Of a stretch of 64,000 nucleotides of DNA, positions 4,701-62,494 are shown piece by piece. Positions within the stretch are counted from its first letter, which is position 1. The number at the start of each line of letters is the position of its first letter. The DNA lies in the NCBI GenBank assembly GCA_022340745.1, contig JAJDNL010000239.1:155-64154 (forward strand). The letters run 5' to 3'. The DNA is from Deltaproteobacteria bacterium. GTDB taxonomy: Bacteria > Desulfobacterota > Syntrophobacteria > BM002. The position numbers were made by a program, and so were the translations under genes. A model generated the notes under the pieces. That model saw only the letters and a list, made by a program, of their open reading frames with translations. It made no database searches and was not told the DNA's origin.

Positions 4701-5165
4701 GTGCATAACCCCTAAACTCCCTGATCTCCTGGTTTCATATTTCTGCAGGGTTTGCTGGTCAAGACAATCCCTTGACCGACAAAAGTGTTCGGGAGAAGTC
4801 ATTATTTTTTTACGTTTCGCGGAAATCATAAGGTCGTTGATCTGGCATGTCAAGATCGAGCATAAAGTACGGGGGATTAGGAAGTAATTGAGGATTTCGC
4901 TTCGGGTCATGTGGCTGCGCCGTCATTAGATCATCACGCTTCGCTGTCATTTGTTGTAAGAGGTAGAGGAAGATTGCAGCTTGATGAAAGGCGCAAGGCG
5001 GTAGAAGACTAAATTCTTCCCCTGCGCCCTGCGCCTTGAGCCGTATGCCTCTCTGAATTCTGCCTACTGACTACTATCTACTGGATTCCTTGATTTTGAA
5101 TTGCGGATGGGGGATTGAGCCTTTGAGATATTGGTCCTTCGGACTCCCCACCCTTCTTGGGAATT

Positions 5166-7594: not shown

Positions 7595-7680
7595 AGAAAT
7601 TGAGGGATTGAGGAGCACCGGTCTTTTTGAGAGAGTCTGGTGCAACGAGAGTAATGCAGTACTGCAAAATATAAGCTTCC

Positions 7681-7780
7681 AAGCACAAAATCTGAAGGTG
7701 TCGGGTGTCAGGTGTCAGGTGTCAGTGAGGAAAACAAAAAAACTGAAACCTGAACACTGAAACCTGAAACCTTCTCTACA
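7681..7780. repeat. heptamer-built hairpin element (family D): (GTGTCAG)3 arm / A-rich loop / (CTGAAAC)n arm
   Basis: AAGCACAAAATCTGAAGGTGTCGGGTGTCAGGTGTCAGGTGTCAG...AACTGAAACCTGAACACTGAAACCTGAAACC; arms are imperfect reverse complements. Ends 5 bp before the dxr GTG start. Confidence 0.7.
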
Positions 7781-7785
7781 TTAAG

Positions 7786-8964
7786 GTGAAAGGAAACGTT
7801 CCTTTGAAAAAAATCGCTATTCTCGGCTCCACAGGCTCCATTGGGCGCAGTGCCCTGCAGGTAGTCGAGCAATTTCCAGACCGTCTCCAGGTTGTCGCTC
7901 TAGCAGCAGGAAGAAACATCGATCTGTTAGCTGAGCAAATTCACCGCTTTCGACCCAAGCTAGCGGCGGTTCTTGATCCTCAGCTGGCCAAAGATCTAAC
8001 CAGTCGCCTGCAACCGGGCATCGAGGTGGAAGTGGTTGCCGACTCGACAGGCTATCAGCAGGTAGCCAGTTGTGCTGAGGCAGAAATGATACTCTCTTCC
8101 ATGGTCGGCGCCGCAGGACTTATCCCCACTCTCAGTGCCATTCGGGCCGGTAAGGACGTGGCATTAGCCAACAAGGAAACTCTGGTAATGGCTGGCGCCC
8201 TCGTCATGGGGGAGGTCCGCCGGTCTCAGGTGGAACTGCTTCCGGTGGACAGCGAACACAACGCCATCTTTCAAGCCTTGGAAGGACACCGCCGAGAAGA
8301 TCTTAAGCGTATTTTACTTACTGCCTCGGGCGGTCCCTTCCTGAACCTGCCCAAAGAGCAACTCGAATCCGTAACTCCAACCCAGGCTTTGGCTCACCCC
8401 AACTGGTCCATGGGTCCCAAGATTACCATTGATTCAGCCACCCTCATGAATAAAGGTCTGGAGGTCATTGAGGCTAAGTGGCTGTTTGACATTCCAGTGG
8501 AAAAAATAGATGTTCATGTCCATCCTCAGAGTATTGTCCACTCCATGGTGGAATACATTGACGGCTCGGTCATTGCCCAGATGGGTATACCTGACATGCG
8601 TATTCCCATAGCCTATGCCTTAGCCTATCCGGAACGTCTAGAGCTGGACCTGCCTCGCTTGGATTTTTTCACCGTGCAAACCCTTACGTTTCAGGAACCC
8701 GACCTCAACCGGTTCCCCTGCCTGAAATTGGCCTTTGCCGCTTGTAAGGCGGGTGGCACTATGCCAGCCGTTCTTAATGCTGCAAATGAGGTTGCAGTCC
8801 AGGCTTTTCTGGATAACCGCATCCCGTTTAGCGGAATTCCCAGATTGGTGAACCTGGCCATGGAAGAGCATGCCCTGGACCCTGGCGCTGAGCTTGAGGC
8901 CATTCTGGAAGCCGACGCCTGGGCGCGGCGACGAACCGAAGAGGAAATTCCTAATCTTCGATAA
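7786..8964 (+). CDS. dxr: 1-deoxy-D-xylulose 5-phosphate reductoisomerase
   Basis: 392 aa. ILGSTGSIG NADPH-binding N-terminus and LANKE...DSEHNAIFQ core are diagnostic of Dxr. Confidence 0.95.
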   Translation: MKGNVPLKKIAILGSTGSIGRSALQVVEQFPDRLQVVALAAGRNIDLLAEQIHRFRPKLAAVLDPQLAKDLTSRLQPGIEVEVVADSTGYQQVASCAEAEMILSSMVGAAGLIPTLSAIRAGKDVALANKETLVMAGALVMGEVRRSQVELLPVDSEHNAIFQALEGHRREDLKRILLTASGGPFLNLPKEQLESVTPTQALAHPNWSMGPKITIDSATLMNKGLEVIEAKWLFDIPVEKIDVHVHPQSIVHSMVEYIDGSVIAQMGIPDMRIPIAYALAYPERLELDLPRLDFFTVQTLTFQEPDLNRFPCLKLAFAACKAGGTMPAVLNAANEVAVQAFLDNRIPFSGIPRLVNLAMEEHALDPGAELEAILEADAWARRRTEEEIPNLR

Positions 8965-11361: not shown

Positions 11362-11665
11362 AGTTCCACGCTCACCGGCATGACCGTAATGCAAACCCAT
11401 TAGAGGTCAAAAAGTTGTGGTGTACCAATACAATGGCCACTGGAGTAGTGGAGTAATGGAGCAACGGAGTAATGAGAAAAGAAAGCCTTCGACATTTGGA
11501 TATTTTCCAATACTCCAGTACTCCAACACTCCAATACCCCAATGATTAGATCATTATTGACAAAATAGTCCAGATTGCATATAGATATTCATTTATCCCT
11601 TCATTTTAGGTAATCTCATTCACATCCAACTTTTTGTAGGCTGGATGCTTCAAGGGGAATAGGGT

Positions 11666-13582: not shown

Positions 13583-13756
13583 CACTTTGCCAGTTGTCCG
13601 TGGTCAGTTGACTAAAATCGCATAGCGCATAGCGCAATAAAGTGTAAACGAAGTGCGCTGTGCGCTGAGCGCTCTGCGCTTTGCTGCGAACTCAGTGAAT
13701 TGGTAGAGGACAGTTCTCAACAGGTACAGCATAGCGATTGAAAATGTCGCTAGCGT

Positions 13757-17062: not shown

Positions 17063-17163
17063 AGGCTACTCCCACCATACGAGGCAAATGACGAAAATGA
17101 ACCTGAGTGCCTGAAGCCTTGTAACAGACCATTACCACTTCGTCAGTCAAGACTTACAGGGTC

Positions 17164-17336
17164 TAGCCCGGATATTTCATGAAATATCCGGGCTCAATCT
17201 ATTCCCCTCCCAGGTAGTATCCAGGAAGGGGAAATTTTTCTTTACAGTGGGGTCAACTGCTTGGTGGTGTCACCACTTGCGGCTGACACCACCGTGATGA
17301 ATGTTAGCCCGGATATTTCATGAAATATCCGGGCTA
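17164..17336. mobile_element. MITE-A compound copy: two minimal 31-bp perfect palindromes flanking a 110-bp hairpin-rich core
   Basis: TAGCCCGGATATTTCATGAAATATCCGGGCT occurs at 17164-17194 and again at 17305-17336. The segment between them contains a 10-bp stem (GGTGGTGTCA...TGACACCACC). Lies 9 bp upstream of the leuC start. Confidence 0.7.
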
Positions 17337-17344
17337 GATGACCA

Positions 17345-23728: not shown

Positions 23729-24003
23729 TTGCCTTTGTGAGACCCTCTAACCGGAGACCCGCCCCAAAGGGATTGAGACTGAGCGCAGCGAGCGCGAAGA
23801 AGAAGGGTGTGCCACAGAAGCGACGATCACAGAACGCGGATTAAAATTTTCCTGAAAAGCTCGTGAGAACCAGAGATCTAATGGCGCAATGTGAACTCTT
23901 ACATTCAATATCATCAATTGTAGTCAAAAATCCGAAACCGGGAACCCGCCCGGAGGGTGGGAGTCCGAAGGACAAATTCGCAATCCGCAATCCGAAATCA
24001 GGC

Positions 24004-25596: not shown

Positions 25597-25610
25597 GCGC
25601 AAAGCGTGAA

Positions 25611-25697
25611 GTAAACAGTAAACGGTGAACGGTAAACCGATCATGCGCTGGCTCCGCGACTGTTTACCGTTTACCATTTACCGTTCTTTCTTTTTTT
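25611..25697 (+). terminator. rho-independent terminator-like hairpin built from GTAAAC(A/G/C) heptamers
   Basis: GTAAACAGTAAACGGTGAACGGTAAACC ... GTTTACCGTTTACCATTTACCGTT inverted arms followed by a TTCTTTCTTTTTTT tract; 15 nt after the stop of the CXXCH/PD40 gene. Confidence 0.55.
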
Positions 25698-25786
25698 CGC
25701 TATGCGCCATGCGCTATGCTCTATGCGATCTGACCTGGCCCTGAGGACCAGGTCTGCTACTTTGAATCAAAGACGGGAGTTAATCT

Positions 25787-29891: not shown

Positions 29892-30129
29892 AACCAACTC
29901 TCCTCGTGCTTCTCTTTGTCATTGGAAAATGAGTCTATGATTACTTTCTTATTTAGCTCCAGTCCAGGGTAATAGATTCTGAAGAGAACCTATGAATCAA
30001 GGGAAGAGCGGTAGGATTTCGGCCTGCTACCATAGTACACACTGGCGTAAATCTCAAGCACCAAATCTGAGGGTGTCAGGTGTCAGGGAAGCAAGAAAGC
30101 CAACCGCTGAACACTTAAACCTCAATTAT

Positions 30130-30504
30130 TTAATGGCTACCACAATGGTCACAGCAGTGAACTGTTGCTGCCAAGGCCTGGACTACCTCTTTGGGTTCAG
30201 CCTTCACAATTTTGACGACCCTCAGCTCAAGGACCAAACTCTTCTCCACCTTGGGCAAATCATCTTGGGGCAACAACTGAGATGCCACAAATGCTGCTGC
30301 CTCCGACGCTAGCACCAGTTCCAGGCATTCTCCTTCTCTAAGGCTTTCCAGTCTTTGATCCACCCCTTCGATCCAAGACTCCACACCATAAAGAAAGCGG
30401 TGCTGCCCTGAGGCTTTCATTGCTTGGTTCTCTTGTTTTTCATCATATAGCCGAAATTCAAGCGTCACATAGTGTAAGGGCGTCACCTCTATCGCCATTG
30501 CCAA
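30130..30504 (-). CDS. FKBP-type peptidyl-prolyl isomerase-like protein with Cys/His-rich C-terminal tail
   Basis: 124 aa. Spacing pattern V.LEFRL.D...(30)...F.YG...I.G.D..L..L..GE.LEL.L....A. resembles the FKBP fold; C-terminal CCDHCGSH resembles SlyD-type metal-binding tails. Weak call. Confidence 0.4.
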   Translation of the reverse strand: MAMAIEVTPLHYVTLEFRLYDEKQENQAMKASGQHRFLYGVESWIEGVDQRLESLREGECLELVLASEAAAFVASQLLPQDDLPKVEKSLVLELRVVKIVKAEPKEVVQALAATVHCCDHCGSH

Positions 30505-30601: not shown

Positions 30602-30675
30602 GAGGTTTCAGTGTTCAGGTTTCAGCTTTTATTGCTGTATTTCCTGACACCTGACACCCGACACCTGAAACCTCC
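30602..30675. repeat. family D heptamer hairpin element copy, inverted orientation
   Basis: GAGGTTTCAGTGTTCAGGTTTCAG...CCTGACACCTGACACCCGACACCTGAAACC. Together with a partial copy at 30058-30100 it brackets the FKBP-like gene. Confidence 0.6.
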
Positions 30676-30805
30676 ACAAAAGCCCGCAATCTTCACCTAC
30701 AACCCTGCCACGGGCGGGAGTCACCTGGTCTCCGGTGCACAATGATTTGCTTTTTTCTTGACTTGCCGCTACTATCTGACGGTCATCAACGAAAAGGGAG
30801 TAAGT

Positions 30806-31655: not shown

Positions 31656-31689
31656 ACCGAATCGACGATTTTACCTTTGTTCTGCTGGC

Positions 31690-31873
31690 TAGCCCGGATA
31701 TTTCATGAATGACTTGCTGCGACCACGGATATGCACGTCCTTCCTGGCGTCCTCGGATGTCGGCCCCTGCAACGTACGGTACAGGTACGCCTCGGAACCG
31801 ACACCCTGCGGTTGCCAGGTTGCACGCCCATCTTCGTGGTCTCGCGACAGCAATTCATGAAATATCCGGGCTA
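31690..31873. mobile_element. MITE-A copy (184 bp), terminal inverted repeats TAGCCCGGATATTTCATGAA
   Basis: Perfect 20-bp TIRs; internal nested inverted repeat (TTGCTGCGACCACGG...CTCGCGACAGCAA). Core shares GTACGTCGCA...CGACACCCGAGGACGCC...ATATCCGCGGTCGCAG blocks with the other copies. Confidence 0.75.
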
Positions 31874-32646
31874 GGTTTCAAGGCGGTGACCAGCATACGT
31901 TTGTTGAGAAGACCGTAATCGTCGGCCTTTGGGTGAGAAACCAGAAGACCACCACAGTCGATTTGCTGGAAGCCGCTTTCAGTGAGGAGCGCTTCCATAT
32001 CTTGGGGCTGGAAAAGCCGGGCAAAGTAGCGAACATCTCGGATAAGACCACGTTCTTTACTCAAAACAATTTCCCTCACCAAAACCCCTTCGTCTTGTAG
32101 TTGACGTTCCCGACATACCACCACATCTTCATTGGCCTCGTGCCAACTGCTGGGCTTGAATTGCCGGCGCGCGTAGTCGCTGTGGATTAAGTCAAGGAGC
32201 ACCCTACCGCCTGGTTTCAACAAGCGGCGGATCTCTCGAAGTATCTCCTGGTTCTGGCTGTCTTCTTTGAAGTAACCAAAGGAATTTCCCATAACCAATA
32301 CCACGTCAAAGCTTTCGTCCGCCAACCCTACCCTACAGGCATCACCGCGACAGAAATGTATCGAGGAGTCGATTTTCGTGGCAGCGTGAGAACCCACTTC
32401 TAACAATACCTGCGAGTAGTCAACCACCATCACATTTCTGTAGCCGCGCCTGGTCAACTCGATGGCATGTCGCCCTTGACCGCCACAAAGGTCGAGAATG
32501 AGATCGTCAGTCCTGAGGCTGAGAGTGGCCTCAACCATGTCGACCTCGGTAGCTGTTACTTCCGGGCAACACACACTACGAGCGTCAGTTACAAGATACG
32601 TCTCGTCAAAAATATGTTGCCACCAAGTGGGATCATATTCATCCAT
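31855..32646 (-). CDS. class I SAM-dependent methyltransferase
   Basis: Motif I VLDLCGGQGRHAIEL and motif post-I/II (LKPGGRVLLD). Confidence 0.75.
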   Translation of the reverse strand: MDEYDPTWWQHIFDETYLVTDARSVCCPEVTATEVDMVEATLSLRTDDLILDLCGGQGRHAIELTRRGYRNVMVVDYSQVLLEVGSHAATKIDSSIHFCRGDACRVGLADESFDVVLVMGNSFGYFKEDSQNQEILREIRRLLKPGGRVLLDLIHSDYARRQFKPSSWHEANEDVVVCRERQLQDEGVLVREIVLSKERGLIRDVRYFARLFQPQDMEALLTESGFQQIDCGGLLVSHPKADDYGLLNKRMLVTALKPSPDIS

Positions 32647-32923
32647 AACTACCTCTCCACTGCCGGGAGGGGGCTAACCATTTGGTAACAGAGGGGGATT
32701 CTGTCTGCGCAGTCAGAAAATCCCAAATCCGAATATCTAAATCCTAATGACCAAAACTAAGAATGATTCTATTTGTGCAATTTTGTTTTGAACATTGGAA
32801 AATTGGGATTTAGAATTTGTTTCGAGCTTCGGATTTAGGATTTCGGATTTATTATCTGCCGTTTTCGGCTCGAAATTCGGAATTCGAAACTTACGCTTCT
32901 TTCGAGAGAAGTTGCTTCCCGCA

Positions 32924-34339: not shown

Positions 34340-34424
34340 GAATGTCGGGTGTCAGGTGTCAGGTGTCAGGGAAGAAAAACAAAACAACTGAAACCTGAAC
34401 ACTGAAACCTGAAACCTCTTCTAC
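34340..34424. repeat. family D heptamer hairpin element copy
   Basis: GTCGGGTGTCAGGTGTCAGGTGTCAGGGAAGAAAAACAAAACAACTGAAACCTGAACACTGAAACCTGAAACC; immediately upstream (5' side) of the ATP-grasp gene on the other strand. Confidence 0.7.
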
Positions 34425-34520
34425 CGACAAAGACATTGAACTATGACCCCCGCAAGGCGGGATCGTGGACTGGCCCCAAGGACCAGGTTTTCGATGTTAA
34501 ATAAGTGCTGACTAACCAGT

Positions 34521-36188: not shown

Positions 36189-36420
36189 TCGTGCTATTTT
36201 ATTGAGGTTATGAATTCCGAAATGAGAAACACGAAGCACGAAACAAATTCAAAATTCAAATTTTCCAATATTCAAAACAATTTCTTTCCGGAAAGCAATT
36301 ACCATTTTGGCCATTTGGATTTCGAAAATTTGAAAATTGTTTCGGATTTCGATATTCGGATTTCGGAGTTTGAAACTATCGCTGCGGATCTGGGACACCT
36401 TCTGGTTACCAGCGATCATT

Positions 36421-37515: not shown

Positions 37516-37707
37516 CTAGAGCCGCTCCAAAGTGTTTTATTTGTTCATCTTATATCATAATAACAAGGAATTGTATAGTGAAAGTGGTCACTCCCCTGTA
37601 CTCATCAGCCATGCGATAGCCTGCTGGAGTAATGGAGTGGCGAAGCATTGCAGAATATCAAATTGGTCCTTCGGACACCCCACCCTGCGGGCGGGTCCCC
37701 GGTTTCC

Positions 37708-37786
37708 AAGCACAAAATCTCTGGGTATCAGGTGTCGGGTGTCAGGGAAGAAAAACAAAACAACTGAAACCTGAAACCTCCTCTAC
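37708..37786. repeat. family D heptamer hairpin element copy
   Basis: AAGCACAAAATCTCTGGGTATCAGGTGTCGGGTGTCAGGGAAGAAAAACAAAACAACTGAAACCTGAAACC. Confidence 0.7.
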
Positions 37787-38041
37787 CGGCACAGCCATTG
37801 AACGCTGACTTGGCCCCAAGGTCTAAGTTTTCATCTTGAAAATGCTCCAGCGAGCGCATTCCCCGTAGCGACACGACTTGAGCGACACGACCTGAGCTCG
37901 TCGACAGGTCTCGTCGACAGGTCTTGCTGCAGGGAGCTTCAATAAATAGAGGAGCTCCCGACAAGGTAATTCTGTGTCTTGACGATTGTTTATGCTAAAA
38001 TGTTGCGGTCTTTTCTACTGATCTAGTCTTGGAGGTAATGT

Positions 38042-44159: not shown

Positions 44160-44318
44160 AATCCCAGTGCCCTTTCCTATTAAGCTCTTTGTTGCTTGCT
44201 ACAATGACAGTGCAGGAAGCGTAACAGAGAAATTAAGGGATTCGGGAATTCAGGGATTGAGGAATTGGAATCCCCCAATCCCTAAATTCCTAAATTCCCT
44301 AATTCGCAATTAATGTCA

Positions 44319-47333: not shown

Positions 47334-47550
47334 AAATGCTATAGCGAGCGCGTCCTCCGTAGCGACTCGACCTGAGCGACACGACCTGAGCTCGTCGACA
47401 GGTCTCGTCGACAAGTCTTGCTGCGGGGTTAGCGAGCGAATTACAATAAAACGGTACGTCGCAAAGTGCGACACCCGAGGACGCCCAGAAGGACGCCTAT
47501 ATCCGCGGTCGCAGTCCGCCGTAGGCGGAATTCATGAAACATCCGGGCTA
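47315..47550. mobile_element. MITE-A copy (236 bp)
   Basis: TAGCCCGGATGTTTCATGAA ... TTCATGAAACATCCGGGCTA termini; same core blocks. The left TIR supplies the last codons and TGA stop of the upstream ORF 46920-47333. Confidence 0.75.
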
Positions 47551-56582: not shown

Positions 56583-56644
56583 GCAGCAAGAATACTCCTA
56601 TTTCGCCTAGATTTAAACGGTATTGTCGAGCACAATGCACAACC

Positions 56645-56828
56645 CAGCTCGGATGTTTCACCAATTGGTGTCGCGAGACCGCAATGATGAGTGTGCCACC
56701 GGGCAACCACAGGGTGTCGGATCCGAGGCGTACTTGAACAGTACGTCGCAGGGTCCGACACCCGAGGACGCCCGGGAGGACGATCATATCTGCGGTCGCA
56801 GCAGGTGATTCGTGAAATATCCGGGCTA
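56645..56828. mobile_element. MITE-A copy (184 bp) with degenerate left terminus
   Basis: CAGCTCGGATGTTTCACCAA ... TTCGTGAAATATCCGGGCTA; core nearly identical to the 40159 copy (GTGTACTTGAACAGTACGTCGCA...GGTCCGACACCCGAGGACGCCCGG). Confidence 0.7.
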
Positions 56829-56912
56829 AAATAGAGGGTATGTCATTGACTAATTTATTGATTTAATGGTACTTTAGCCATCGATATACGCAACTGCAAA
56901 GGGTACACGAAC

Positions 56913-57662: not shown

Positions 57663-58082
57663 CCCGGAGAGATTTTAGATTTGTCCTGCGGACTCCCACC
57701 CTTCGGGCGGGTTCCCAGTTTTAGAATGCAGATTTCAGATTTAAAAGCTCAAGACCTTCTAGTGAAGAATGCATTCACCTCAATCTGCAATCTCCAATCT
57801 GCAATCATAAATCTAAAGAGACTGGCCCTGAGACCAGGTTTTCTACGACTAAATAAGATCTAATTCCCCCCACTCCCCCCATACAAAGTGGTAATTTATT
57901 TCCACTTTGTTACCTTTACTTCCCAAAAATTACCTCGCAGTTTTCCCATAAGATCTTTTTAACTATTTGGAATCGTAGAGAAATTTAAAAGATTGCCTTT
58001 TGGCACGGTCTTTGTTTATCAAGGCTTCACTGAGCAAATTAACTCATGCTGACGCCGACAAGGAATGGTACGAGAAGTCCGT

Positions 58083-61215: not shown

Positions 61216-61600
61216 AGTTGATCATCTGCTAAATACCAGACTCGATTGTTATATGGACTCAGCCCTAAAGAGTTATGTAAATTTTTTAGGAGGCATCAAT
61301 CGCTCTGAGTTTCAGGTAATTTCTGGATTAGGTTGTGGCTAACCCAAGACTTATTATCTACATTGCATAGCAGTTTGTCGAAATTTTATATAGCATACTT
61401 TAATCCACCGTGTACCGCTTGAGAACCAGATACCATATGGTGGAGCAACCAAACCATGCTCCAGCGCTCCTGGAAATTCCACCAAGACTAAGCTGCCAGC
61501 CGCTGACCAATTCTCGAGGGGTTAACGTCAGGAGCAGTAAAGAATCCGGGCCCATCGAAGATCCCGCTGTGCGTAAAAGGAGCCCAGCACTTTACGGTTT

Positions 61601-61678
61601 GTCCTGCGGACTCCCACCCTACGGGTGGGTTCCCGGTTTGTCCTGCGGACTCCCACCCTACGGGTGGGTTCCCAGTTT
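61601..61678. repeat. two tandem 39-bp hairpin units GTCCTGCGGACTCCCACCCTACGGGTGGGTTCCC(G/A)GTTT
   Basis: Each unit contains a CCCACCC-TACG-GGTGGG stem-loop. Related single units at 57683-57722, 37663-37700, 5128-5160 and, reverse-complemented, at 23936-23974. Confidence 0.7.
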
Positions 61679-61699
61679 GTCCTGCGGACCAGGTTTCCT

Positions 61700-61768: not shown

Positions 61769-62494
61769 CTACTTCTCGTCCTCGTCTTTGGCTTTCTTGG
61801 TCCTACCTTTTTTCTTTTTGGCAGTTTTTGTAGCTTTCTCTGACTCAGGCTCTGAGGCCTCTTCAGCTGCCGGGGCTTCGGCTTTCGCCTTTTTCGCGGG
61901 TTTACGCTTCTTCTTTTTCTCTTCGACAGCTTCCTCTGCTACCGCCTTTTCAGCTGCCGGTGCTTCGGCTTTCGCCTTTTTCGCGGGCTTACGCTTCTTC
62001 TTTTTCTGCTCGACAGCTTCCTCTGCTACCGCCTCTTCAGTTGCAGCTTCCTCCTCTACTATCTCCTCAACAGCCGGAGGTGCAGCCTCTACAGCTTTGC
62101 GGGGTTTGCGTTTCCTCTTCTTTTTCTTCTTTGCAGCTTCCCCGGTCATCAGCTCGATGAGACTCAATGGGGCACCATCACCAACCCGAAAACCTACTCT
62201 TACCATACGAGTGTAGCCGCCACTGCGGGCCTGATAACGCTGGGCCAGATCAGTAAATAATTTGTGAACCACCGCCTTATCTCGTATGACTTGGAGTGCC
62301 TGGCGTCTGGCGTGCAGATCTCCCCTTTTTCCCAAGGTTATCATCCAATCAGCCCAGCGCCGAAGCTCCTTGGCCTTGGCATGGGTGGTGTATATACGTT
62401 CGTGATCCAGCAGCGAAGTCACCATGTTGCGAAACATGGCCAACCGATGGCTGGAAGAGCGATTCAGCTTTCTCCCACTCTTGCCGTGTCGCAT
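61769..62494 (-). CDS. rplQ: 50S ribosomal protein L17 with long Lys/Ala/Glu-rich C-terminal extension
   Basis: N-terminal 120 aa are canonical L17 ([24 protein letters not shown]...). The C-terminal 120 aa are a low-complexity [19 protein letters not shown] repeat. rpoA-rplQ synteny. Confidence 0.9.
61864..62037. repeat. 87-bp direct tandem duplication inside the rplQ C-terminal extension (2 copies, about 95 percent identical)
   Basis: Copy 1 at 61864-61950 and copy 2 at 61951-62037 differ at about 4 positions. Encodes the repeated AVAEEAVE(Q/E)[19 protein letters not shown](K/E) 29-aa unit. Confidence 0.8.

Follow-up and report, generated by a model that had tools for sequence, protein, structure and literature searches.

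Mazel et al. reportedly described, in 1990, the short tandemly repeated repetitive (STRR) sequences of cyanobacteria, heptanucleotide repeats of Calothrix and Anabaena. STRR units also extend helix P12 of the RNase P RNA and can in this way form a hairpin. An excess of heptamers in intergenic DNA, and the idea that polymerase slippage is involved, are ascribed by a later quotation to Mrazek (2007, as quoted in PMC4692102). Two Xanthomonas genomes carry 186 and 183 arrays of the heptamer GGGAATC, mostly of four units, and 70-75 convergent pairs per genome are able to form stem-loops at loci that are conserved and vary in length between species (Rehm et al. 2015, PMC4692102). Here we report a family of hairpins with heptamer-repeat arms in 64,000 nucleotides of contig JAJDNL010000239.1 (the whole of this stretch is called the window below), which belongs to an uncultured Syntrophobacteria-like Desulfobacterota metagenome-assembled genome (MAG). 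At orthologous spacers of related genomes whole copies are present, absent or replaced, and their placement relative to genes is indistinguishable from random. The family is real, abundant in environmental Desulfobacterota and, as far as the literature found goes, previously undescribed, but it is not a new class of element; no open-access paper containing the tandem strings GTGTCAGGTGTCAG or CTGACACCTGACAC was found.

The closest precedent is the inverted GGGAATC pairs of Xanthomonas, which are the same kind of object. Like these arrays and the GGGGAYT repeats of Nostoc (PMC4692102), the hairpins consist of tandem 7-nt units, lie nearly always between genes and occupy many loci per unit; with the Xanthomonas arrays they share, in addition, the inverted pairs and the conservation of the locus with variable length and sequence. 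Unlike them, the GGTKTCR unit is not G-rich and has no quadruplex potential, the arms are systematically mismatched, the copies carry a conserved non-repetitive leader, loop and trailer and form mosaics, and the hosts are Desulfobacterota, other phyla and phages. All of the features that define heptameric simple sequence repeats and STRRs were found, namely at least two head-to-tail units, a non-coding location, many loci per unit, convergent stem-loop pairs and a variable number of units. STRRs likewise form tandem-heptamer families dispersed in non-coding DNA, with several units per genome, although their units are different (CCCCAGT, TTGGTCA and CAACAGT; compared with the present family by description only). 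A preliminary description of the window had proposed a distinct small-element class, which does not hold, since inverted heptamer hairpins have already been described in Xanthomonas (PMC4692102) and heptamers have long been known in cyanobacteria and Beggiatoaceae. It was correct in stating that the construction is unlike that of REP, BIME or ERIC elements and has conserved flanking modules, which makes it a genuine repeat family.

The TAACTGA repeats of Beggiatoaceae, cyanobacteria and Bacteroidetes are direct (one inverted set in 170) and forward, and mostly end a few nucleotides from a start codon (MacGregor 2015, PMC4679880). They resemble the hairpins in forming intergenic arrays of 2-6 units in distant phyla with no evident transfer mechanism, in being common in phage contigs, and in the CTGA that the rotated unit CTGATAA shares with CTGAAAC, CTGACAC and CTGAACA. 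The difference is that they are start-proximal direct repeats, whereas the hairpins have no such bias.

Other short repeats are more distant. MITEs (miniature inverted-repeat transposable elements) are also small, non-coding, dispersed and polymorphic in presence and absence, but the hairpins lack a target-site duplication, terminal inverted repeats separate from the stem, and a related insertion sequence of full length. Arrays of 7-bp heptads, in both direct and inverted arrangement, are bound by the omega repressor of plasmid pSM19035, and TTTTGAT heptads by ToxR. The omega heptads, contiguous units each bound by one dimer, provide a working model for a protein-recognition array; however, their unit is WATCACW and they occupy a few plasmid promoters beside the gene of the binding protein, whereas the copies described here are dispersed over the chromosome with no associated gene. 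REP sequences end in a foot, the conserved tetranucleotide GTAG. Their stems have no tandem units, and the hairpins have no consistent foot of the GTAG type. Short extragenic imperfect palindromes in many copies, clustering and nesting with other small repeats and the absence of target-site duplications are common to the REP/BIME/REPIN elements and the hairpins; REPs and REPINs are presumed to be mobilised in trans and are defined by their association with RAYT genes (Bertels and Rainey 2011, PMC3116915).

Structure of the copies in the window

The window contains exactly five copies, four complete and one decayed, all of them intergenic; a BLAST search of the whole window with the consensus modules recovered these five and no others. 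All five were found where the preliminary description had placed them, and the copy it called partial, at 30058, is the decayed copy 2. The hairpins have a common build, in which (GGTGTCR)2-4 and (CTGAAAC/CTGAACA)2-4 are separated by 17-19 nt of A-rich loop, and direct reading of the copies confirmed the arms of heptamer runs around an A-rich loop. With up to two mismatches allowed, GGTGTCAGGTGTCAG has 14 matches in the window against 0.09 expected from shuffled sequences, and CTGAAACCTGAAAC 16 against 0.65. TRF reports period 7 in every arm, with 2.3-4.9 copies. The parts of the five copies are as follows (L numbers denote loci of other genomes).

7647..7696, + strand: leader module of copy 1 (GAGAGTAATGCAGTACTGCAAAATATAAGCTTCCAAGCACAAAATCTGAA); aligns with the leaders of copy 5, L038, L116, L119 and L029
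7697-7771, + strand: hairpin of copy 1; 4 left units, 4 right units
7697..7725, + strand: left arm of copy 1, GGTGTCG GGTGTCA GGTGTCA GGTGTCA G
7726..7742, + strand: loop of copy 1, TGAGGAAAACAAAAAAA
7743..7771, + strand: right arm of copy 1, CTGAAAC CTGAACA CTGAAAC CTGAAAC C
7772..7785, + strand: trailer of copy 1 (TTCTCTACATTAAG), then the dxr start (GTG 7786 or TTG 7804)
30055..30123, + strand: copy 2, decayed; leader CAAGCACCAAATCTGAG, left arm 30072-30087 (2 units), loop, degenerate right arm 30107-30123
30602..30674, - strand: copy 3, inverted; 4 left units, 3 right units
30604-30672, copy 3 read on the + strand: GGTTTCA GTGTTCA GGTTTCA G at 30604-30625, loop 30626-30643, CTGACAC CTGACAC CCGACAC CTGAAAC C at 30644-30672
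30673..30700, + strand: trailer-B module (CTCCACAAAAGCCCGCAATCTTCACC) beside copy 3; recurs after hairpins in L028, L030, L044 and L054
34341..34416, + strand: copy 4, without leader; 3 left units, 4 right units
Parts of copy 4: AATGTCG, three GGTGTCA and GG to 34370; loop 34371-34387 (GAAGAAAAACAAAACAA); right arm 34388-34416
34417..34500, + strand: trailer-C and 'T' modules after copy 4 (TCTTCTACCGACAAAGACATTGAAC..., small hairpin CCCCGCAAGGCGGG, GACTGGCCCCAAGGACCAGGTTTTCGATG)
37621..37723, + strand: leader of copy 5, split by a 40-bp GC-rich module nested at 37665-37704
37724..37778, + strand: hairpin of copy 5, 3 left and 2 right units; GGTATCA GGTGTCG GGTGTCA GG, loop 37747-37763, CTGAAAC CTGAAAC C
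37779..37842, + strand: trailer-C and 'T' module of copy 5 (TCCTCTACCGGCACAGCCATTGAACGCTGAC TTGGCCCCAAGGTCTAAGTTTTCATC)

The leader module of copy 1, which the leader-consensus BLAST matches at 7663-7693, is itself a decayed heptamer/octamer array. The same is true of the family leader and one trailer type in general, and these two are mutually inverted copies, so that the full element forms a palindrome of some 200 bp whose regularity increases towards the loop. The right arm of copy 2 has decayed to CTGAACA CTTAAAC CTCAATT, while the 29-mer right arm of copy 1 is the most frequent among the 141 hairpins located in the window and the other loci. The trailer-C and 'T' modules after copy 4 have 96% identity to the consensus of the relatives and are common to copy 5, L038 and L029. 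The conserved parts listed in the preliminary description are less uniform than stated: its leader AAGCACMAAATCT is present in copies 1, 2 and 5 and missing from copies 3 and 4, its exact loop GAAGAAAAACAAAACAA occurs in copies 4 and 5 only, and the ending CCTCYTCTAC is likewise found in these two, copy 1 having CCTTCTCTAC instead. A CTAC 8-9 nt past the right arm occurs in copies 1, 4 and 5 only, and not in trailer types A and B.

Copies 1, 3 and 4 fold far better than shuffled sequences both as RNA (z-scores of -5.9, -4.5 and -3.8, respectively) and as DNA (z-scores of -6.0 and -3.1), and the predicted RNA hairpin of copy 1 reaches -39 kcal/mol; for copies 2 and 5 the fold was not clearly better than that of shuffles (z of about -1.2). 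The arms, which had been called complementary, are imperfectly so: when GGTGTCAG pairs with CTGAAACC, each unit has one G.A mismatch (T.C on the opposite strand), and a CTGAACA unit has three.

Several repeat hairpins are accompanied by the same small module, GACTGGCCCYRAGGACCAGG and then TTTTCGATG, which resembles a short stem with a T-run. It is found at 34471-34500, 37810-37842 and 25735-25765 of the window, at 4290-4335 of L029 and at 1618-1650 of L038, with no consistent placement behind genes.

Turnover of copies at orthologous sites

The comparison of orthologous spacers is the most informative evidence on the family. The region from 36 to 44 kb of the window is syntenic, at 84-94% identity, with MAGs labelled Desulfobacteraceae BM002 and Syntrophobacterales CSMAG_766. 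In the cdsA-dxr spacer, occupied by copy 1, three strains of about 98% identity have 4, 4 and 3 left units and a constant right arm; the window, L113 and L114 have 4 left units and L112 has 3. In L117 and L118 (94% Dxr identity) the spacer is empty and measures 18 bp. L115 (95%) carries an octamer-repeat hairpin in place of the heptamer hairpin, and remnants of this octamer hairpin flank copy 1 in the window. In L116, L119 and L120 (93-95%), a 45-bp element (TTGGAGCGAAGCGGAAATCCCGTCTGAAGCGAAGCGGCAGCGGGG) is nested in the right arm of the hairpin with no duplication, between CTGAAACCTG and AACAC, at about 1930-1975 of L116 and about 1905-1950 of L119 and L120; it is also present in L082. This element resembles the very small mobile repeats that reportedly insert into heptamer arrays of Nostoc.

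The pilZ-CoADR spacer, which holds copy 5, has 3 left and 2 right units in the window and 4 and 4 in L038, and is without the element in L029. The L038 leader is the same as that of copy 5 except that the 40-bp module is missing. At a third site a complete inverted copy, leader and trailer modules included, follows a terminator in L029, and both the window and L038 are empty. No target-site duplication was seen in the filled and empty comparisons (the window against L117 and L118; L029 against L038 and the window). The lengths of the two arms are loosely coupled (r = 0.30) and equal in 43 of the 141 hairpins.

Copies are therefore gained and lost as blocks, their arms change by single units independently, and the spacers are mosaics of nested small repeats. 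Variation of the heptamer number between copies and between strains, which had been suggested as a check, is thus established at two sites, by 4 against 3 left units at dxr and 3/2 against 4/4 at pilZ.

Unit sequence and pairing of the arms

A metagenome scan in which the variable base was left free gave at least 120 loci, with at least 136 hairpin matches; the following counts apply to the matches listed. With the left arm fixed as GGTGTCA, position 4 of the right-arm units, read on the GGT strand, was G in 150 cases, T in 102, A in 12 and C in 7. In right arms from phage contigs the corresponding base was C in 7 loci and A in 12 loci (about 5 distinct), and G or T in none.

The G/T state of the units lying opposite each other was the same in 82 pairs and different in 99 (odds ratio 0.67, p = 0.23), where the pairing register was assumed from the loop outward and the sequences are not phylogenetically independent. 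Compensatory covariation at the dimorphic position was thus not found in this register, and perfectly complementary unit pairs make up 13% of all pairs and 25% of those not fixed by the search pattern. The independence of the G/T states between the arms implies that pairing is not maintained at the variable position and that the unit sequence is kept.

Placement relative to genes

The 141 hairpins were reduced to 121 independent sites by collapsing orthologous sites; their loops are mostly 15-19 nt long, and five of them lie inside open reading frame (ORF) calls. Tandem spacers account for 60 of the 121 sites (37 sense and 23 antisense, p = 0.09), divergent spacers for 20 and convergent spacers for 11, a split in line with the length-weighted spacer background (chi-square p = 0.64). 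There is no deficit of convergent spacers, the mean relative position in tandem spacers is 0.49, and the start downstream and the stop upstream are at median distances of 76 nt and 87 nt, respectively. The copies had been said to abut start codons often and to be promoter-proximal, and this bias disappears across the 121 sites. Random placement and unconserved flanks had been named together as the outcome that would speak against the family: the placement is random-like, but the leader and trailer are conserved.

Terminator-like sites were absent at the four loci scanned, with loops of 17-19 nt and no U-tract signature, and promoter consensus scans of four loci gave matches that were sparse, inconsistent and close to shuffle expectation. 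A search of the whole window against Rfam 15 produced no match at the gathering threshold; a mir-2278 match of 17.5 bits (threshold 93, E = 0.8) was dismissed as spurious. Iteron or response-regulator sites, another earlier suggestion, do not fit the housekeeping neighbours, the lack of positional bias and the lack of a plasmid match.

Distribution in other genomes and in phages

A scan of 185,579 species genomes for GTGTCRGGTGTCAG-N10-40-CTGAAACCTGAA identified at least 111 loci. Among the matches listed, about 92 loci come from Desulfobacterota-type MAGs, many of them sharing the leader, loop and trailer modules of the window, and the other 19 have the same heptamers with unrelated loops and flanks. 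The labels recorded for these 19 are Blastocatellia, Acidobacteriota, Solibacteraceae, Akkermansia, Opitutales, Victivallales, Planctomycetota, Chloroploca, Selenomonadales, Gemmatimonadaceae and Gammaproteobacteria. Several MAGs, for example BM002, CSMAG_766 and CSMAG_1091, have hairpins on multiple contigs. The pattern was also found in 12 phage contigs, usually just before the ribosome-binding site, and a BLAST search of 72,556 plasmids gave no match.

In IMG/VR at least three perfect tandem units were found at 39 loci for GGTGTCA, 32 for CTGAAAC and at least 107 for TAACTGA, compared with 11 and 15 for the same-composition controls GTGGACT and GGGTTAC. (GGTGTCA)3 and (CTGAAAC)3 are therefore 2-3.5 times commoner than the two control heptamers. 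Some control arrays also form hairpins or adjoin start codons. Since control heptamers form arrays too, heptamer arrays are general and the GGTGTCA/CTGAAAC unit is only moderately favoured. The idea of a cross-phylum motif unique to this unit has to be tempered by the same comparison (11 and 15 control loci against 39).

Single arrays at the IMG/VR loci L134-L162 and L174-L188, for instance of (CTGACAC)n or of the control (GTAACCC)n, very frequently stop immediately upstream of a ribosome-binding site and ATG, with the G-poor strand as the sense strand. Of the heptamers tested in phage contigs, TAACTGA forms arrays most frequently.

Heptamer arrays as a general feature of the source genome

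TRF reports 30 rows of period 7 in the window against 0.65 in shuffled sequences. When overlaps are removed, 28 of the 30 arrays of period 7, 14 or 21 are intergenic, within the non-coding 19% of the window, and in 878 kb 434 of about 930 arrays have period 7. The window holds no fewer than six further hairpin families of the same build, made from tandem 7- or 8-mers. The hairpin family is one case of a general repeat habit of the source genome.

Origin and possible role of the hairpins

We tentatively regard the copies as non-coding, non-autonomous, REP/BIME-like dispersed imperfect palindromes whose stem arms are heptamer microsatellites with unit turnover by slippage, an interpretation that falls slightly short of an even chance. 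Units would be gained and lost by replication slippage, and the periodic mismatches may reflect independent turnover in the two arms, drawing on two old variants, GGTGTCA and GGTTTCA. Spread to new spacers might depend on a hairpin-recognising enzyme acting in trans or on recombination between the many shared modules, and any effect on neighbouring genes, for instance through a stable stem-loop in an untranslated region (UTR), would be a by-product and not the reason why the element exists.

Several observations weigh against this interpretation. In comparisons of orthologues the arms show stronger conservation than the leader or the loop, which could be due to concerted evolution or to selection. 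Among the matches listed, 252 of the 271 free cases (93%) have G or T at position 4 and 19 have A or C, and units outside the search pattern follow the profile GGTKTCR, with A or G at position 7 and the other positions at least 92% invariant. The unit pair recurs with unrelated loops and flanks in at least eight other phyla (by record labels) and in phage contigs; this is not predicted by pure neutrality unless all of the copies share ancestry through horizontal transfer. The agreement of the 121 sites with random placement was obtained with genes called crudely as the longest non-overlapping ORFs and with loci chosen by a pattern that fixes part of the arms. A mobilising enzyme was not found in the proteins scanned near hairpins, and clustering of 4,446 ORFs within 1.5 kb of 266 hairpins yielded no recurrent family except ubiquitous PAS/histidine kinases. 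Genes flanked by two hairpins are housekeeping genes where they match Pfam (the AHAS small subunit, rubrerythrin, PilZ, MurC and others); one has no match.

The constraint on the unit is the main reason to consider a protein-recognition array, in which each GGTKTCR heptamer is one predicted binding unit, double- or single-stranded, and the hairpin is a side effect of inverted arrays; nucleoid organisation or simultaneous regulation of many loci are possible roles. We consider such an array unlikely, though deserving of serious attention. Positions 1-3, 5 and 6 are nearly fixed, position 4 is keto-only and position 7 a purine, the G/T states of the arms are independent with the sequence kept without pairing, and with the left arm fixed the right-arm position is C in about half of the units, A in about 40% and T or G in less than 8%, though C-to-T would be the most frequent change under neutrality and would preserve wobble pairing. 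The recurrence in many phyla and phages with unrelated loops and the excess of both triple units over the controls in IMG/VR point in the same direction. On the other hand, the many unrelated heptamer and octamer arrays of the same genome and the control arrays in phages make a unit-independent process the more economical explanation, the sites bear no relation in position to promoters or starts, no recurrent neighbouring gene for a DNA-binding protein was found, and the G/T dimorphism could represent two ancestral variants kept by unit turnover. A bolder form of the idea, which we think decidedly improbable, is that GGTKTCR arrays, and perhaps CTGA-type heptamers such as TAACTGA, form a recognition code across phyla and phages that would be read by one conserved putative binding protein or by an enzyme with a 7-nt step. 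If true, the shared code would explain the unit pair with unrelated loops, the keto-only position 4 and the sequence kept without pairing.

A cis-acting RNA stem-loop in a UTR, which would protect mRNA ends, be cleaved by RNase III or control the translation of the next gene, is improbable in our judgement. Such a role has been proposed for TAACTGA repeats that precede start codons and is known for some REP elements. A stem-loop would agree with the stable predicted hairpins of copies 1, 3 and 4, with the near symmetry by which a CTGAMAC array forms the 3' arm of the transcript in either orientation, and with the positions of copies 1 and 4, which end 15-36 nt upstream of a start codon. In phage contigs the hairpin stands immediately before a Shine-Dalgarno sequence with its ATG, many single (CTGACAC)n arrays adjoin the ribosome-binding site and ATG, TAACTGA (= CTGATAA) also has a CTGA core (PMC4679880), and in Coxiella an RNase III site is located at the first heptamer of a variable set (PMC4990558). 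Against this, there is no covariation and 13-25% of the unit pairs are perfect, convergent spacers are as frequent as expected from their length, in tandem spacers the hairpins are central and not start-proximal, copy 5 is 208 and 264 nt away from its two divergent starts, and neither a U-tract terminator nor an Rfam match was found; the phage spacers are so short that any repeat in them is near a start codon. Very improbable, finally, is a purely local origin, by slippage and template switching in place with no dispersal, the likeness of the copies being convergence on slippage-prone units. Heptamer arrays of many sequences throughout the genome and in phages, the lack of a transposition signature and the unrelated loops and flanks in other phyla fit it. 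However, the window and its relatives share a non-repetitive leader of about 50 nt, near-identical loops of 17-19 nt and trailers of 30-80 nt, which convergence cannot yield, and in L029 a complete inverted copy, modules included, occupies a site at which two relatives are empty. For the Desulfobacterota family, a local origin thus appears largely refuted by these sequence comparisons.

Among the candidate systems that were tried, the end of a MITE or insertion sequence was rejected for lack of a target-site duplication and of a full-length insertion sequence with the same termini, integron attC sites on account of termini that do not fit RYYYAAC/GTTRRRY and of core-gene neighbours, and CRISPR repeats for lack of spacers. 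Thirteen hairpin-flanking proteins, seven of them lying between two hairpins, were scanned and included no transposase. RAYT genes, which code for IS200-like tyrosine transposases and in REP and REPIN systems are flanked by the repeats, are usually single-copy in a genome. The only inverted pair spanning genes, in L016, has arms of 115 nt and encloses an oxidoreductase and an epimerase. In Candidatus Chloroploca (L019, 7435-7821) a PF05635 gene, coding for a 23S rRNA intervening-sequence protein (S23p/bAvd-like), lies between two heptamer hairpins, with very long arrays of up to 19.9 units. Variable heptamers are likewise located upstream of an S23p ORF in Coxiella, where the RNase III site is at the first heptamer of the set (PMC4990558). 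A general linkage of S23p to the hairpins was discarded, as phmmer found only two such genes in 2.66 Mb.

Neighbouring genes and other repeats in the window

The GTG at 7786 comes 15 nt after the end of the last unit in copy 1, and not 5 nt after it as first reported. The Dxr protein of the window is identical to MCG6946423.1 ('Deltaproteobacteria bacterium' MAG). The dxr start is ambiguous: GTG 7786 gives 392 aa (JGI calls), and the 386 aa of GenBank MCG6946423.1 correspond to TTG 7804. The conserved Dxr N-terminus MKKIAILGSTGSIG fits the TTG start at 7804. The copies near 34340 and 37708 had both been assigned to divergent genes, which is true of copy 5, at 208 and 264 nt from its two divergent starts, but not of copy 4, which lies between two genes of the same (minus) strand; among the window copies, only 3 and 5 occupy divergent spacers. 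The gene between copies 2 and 3 (30130-30504, minus strand), previously taken for FKBP-like, has no Pfam or NCBIfam match, so that this assignment lacks support.

The other repeats of the window are as follows.

11441-11548, 13619-13684, 25610-25685, 32718-32851, 36226-36367 and 44227-44305: other hairpins of 7- or 8-mers
31689-31876 (+ strand) and 56642-56830 (- strand): full copies of a MITE-like element
17162-17338: pair of terminal palindromes of the MITE-like element, 111 nt apart
37665-37704, 991-1024, 5133-5154, 23936-23973, 57695-57712 and 61595-61689: 40-bp GC-rich repeat

The arm units of the six other hairpins are unrelated (TGGAGTAA/TCCAATAC, CGCATAG/GTGCGCT, GTAAACN/GTTTACC, AAATCCN/GGATTTN, GAGGAATT/AATTCCTA and one more), and a T-run directly follows the hairpin at 25610. 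The MITE-like element is a classical one of about 188 bp, with perfect terminal inverted repeats of 20 bp (TAGCCCGGATATTTCATGAA), and is also present in the related MAG loci L006, L029, L030, L044, L069 and L105. The 40-bp GC-rich repeat (GGTCCTTCGGACACCCCACCCTGCGGGCGGGTCCCCGGTT), which is nested in the leader of copy 5 and missing from its ortholog L038, occurs once as 2.4 tandem copies of 39 bp. Another partial palindrome built from repeats, (AGCGACACGACCTG)x2 followed by (CTCGTCGACAGGT)x2, has two copies (37867-37924 and 47361-47418). An 87-bp tandem repeat at 61857-62044 (2.2 copies, 93% matches) may be coding.

Significance

In practical terms, repeats of this kind break short-read assemblies and mislead the prediction of start codons and small RNAs in these MAGs. 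The retention of the unit sequence without retention of pairing is one clean statistical result. With its defined unit, its abundance, its site polymorphisms and its occurrence in phages, the family offers a tractable case of the heptamer-repeat excess noted since 2007, in which the slippage, binding-protein and RNA-structure hypotheses are separately testable.

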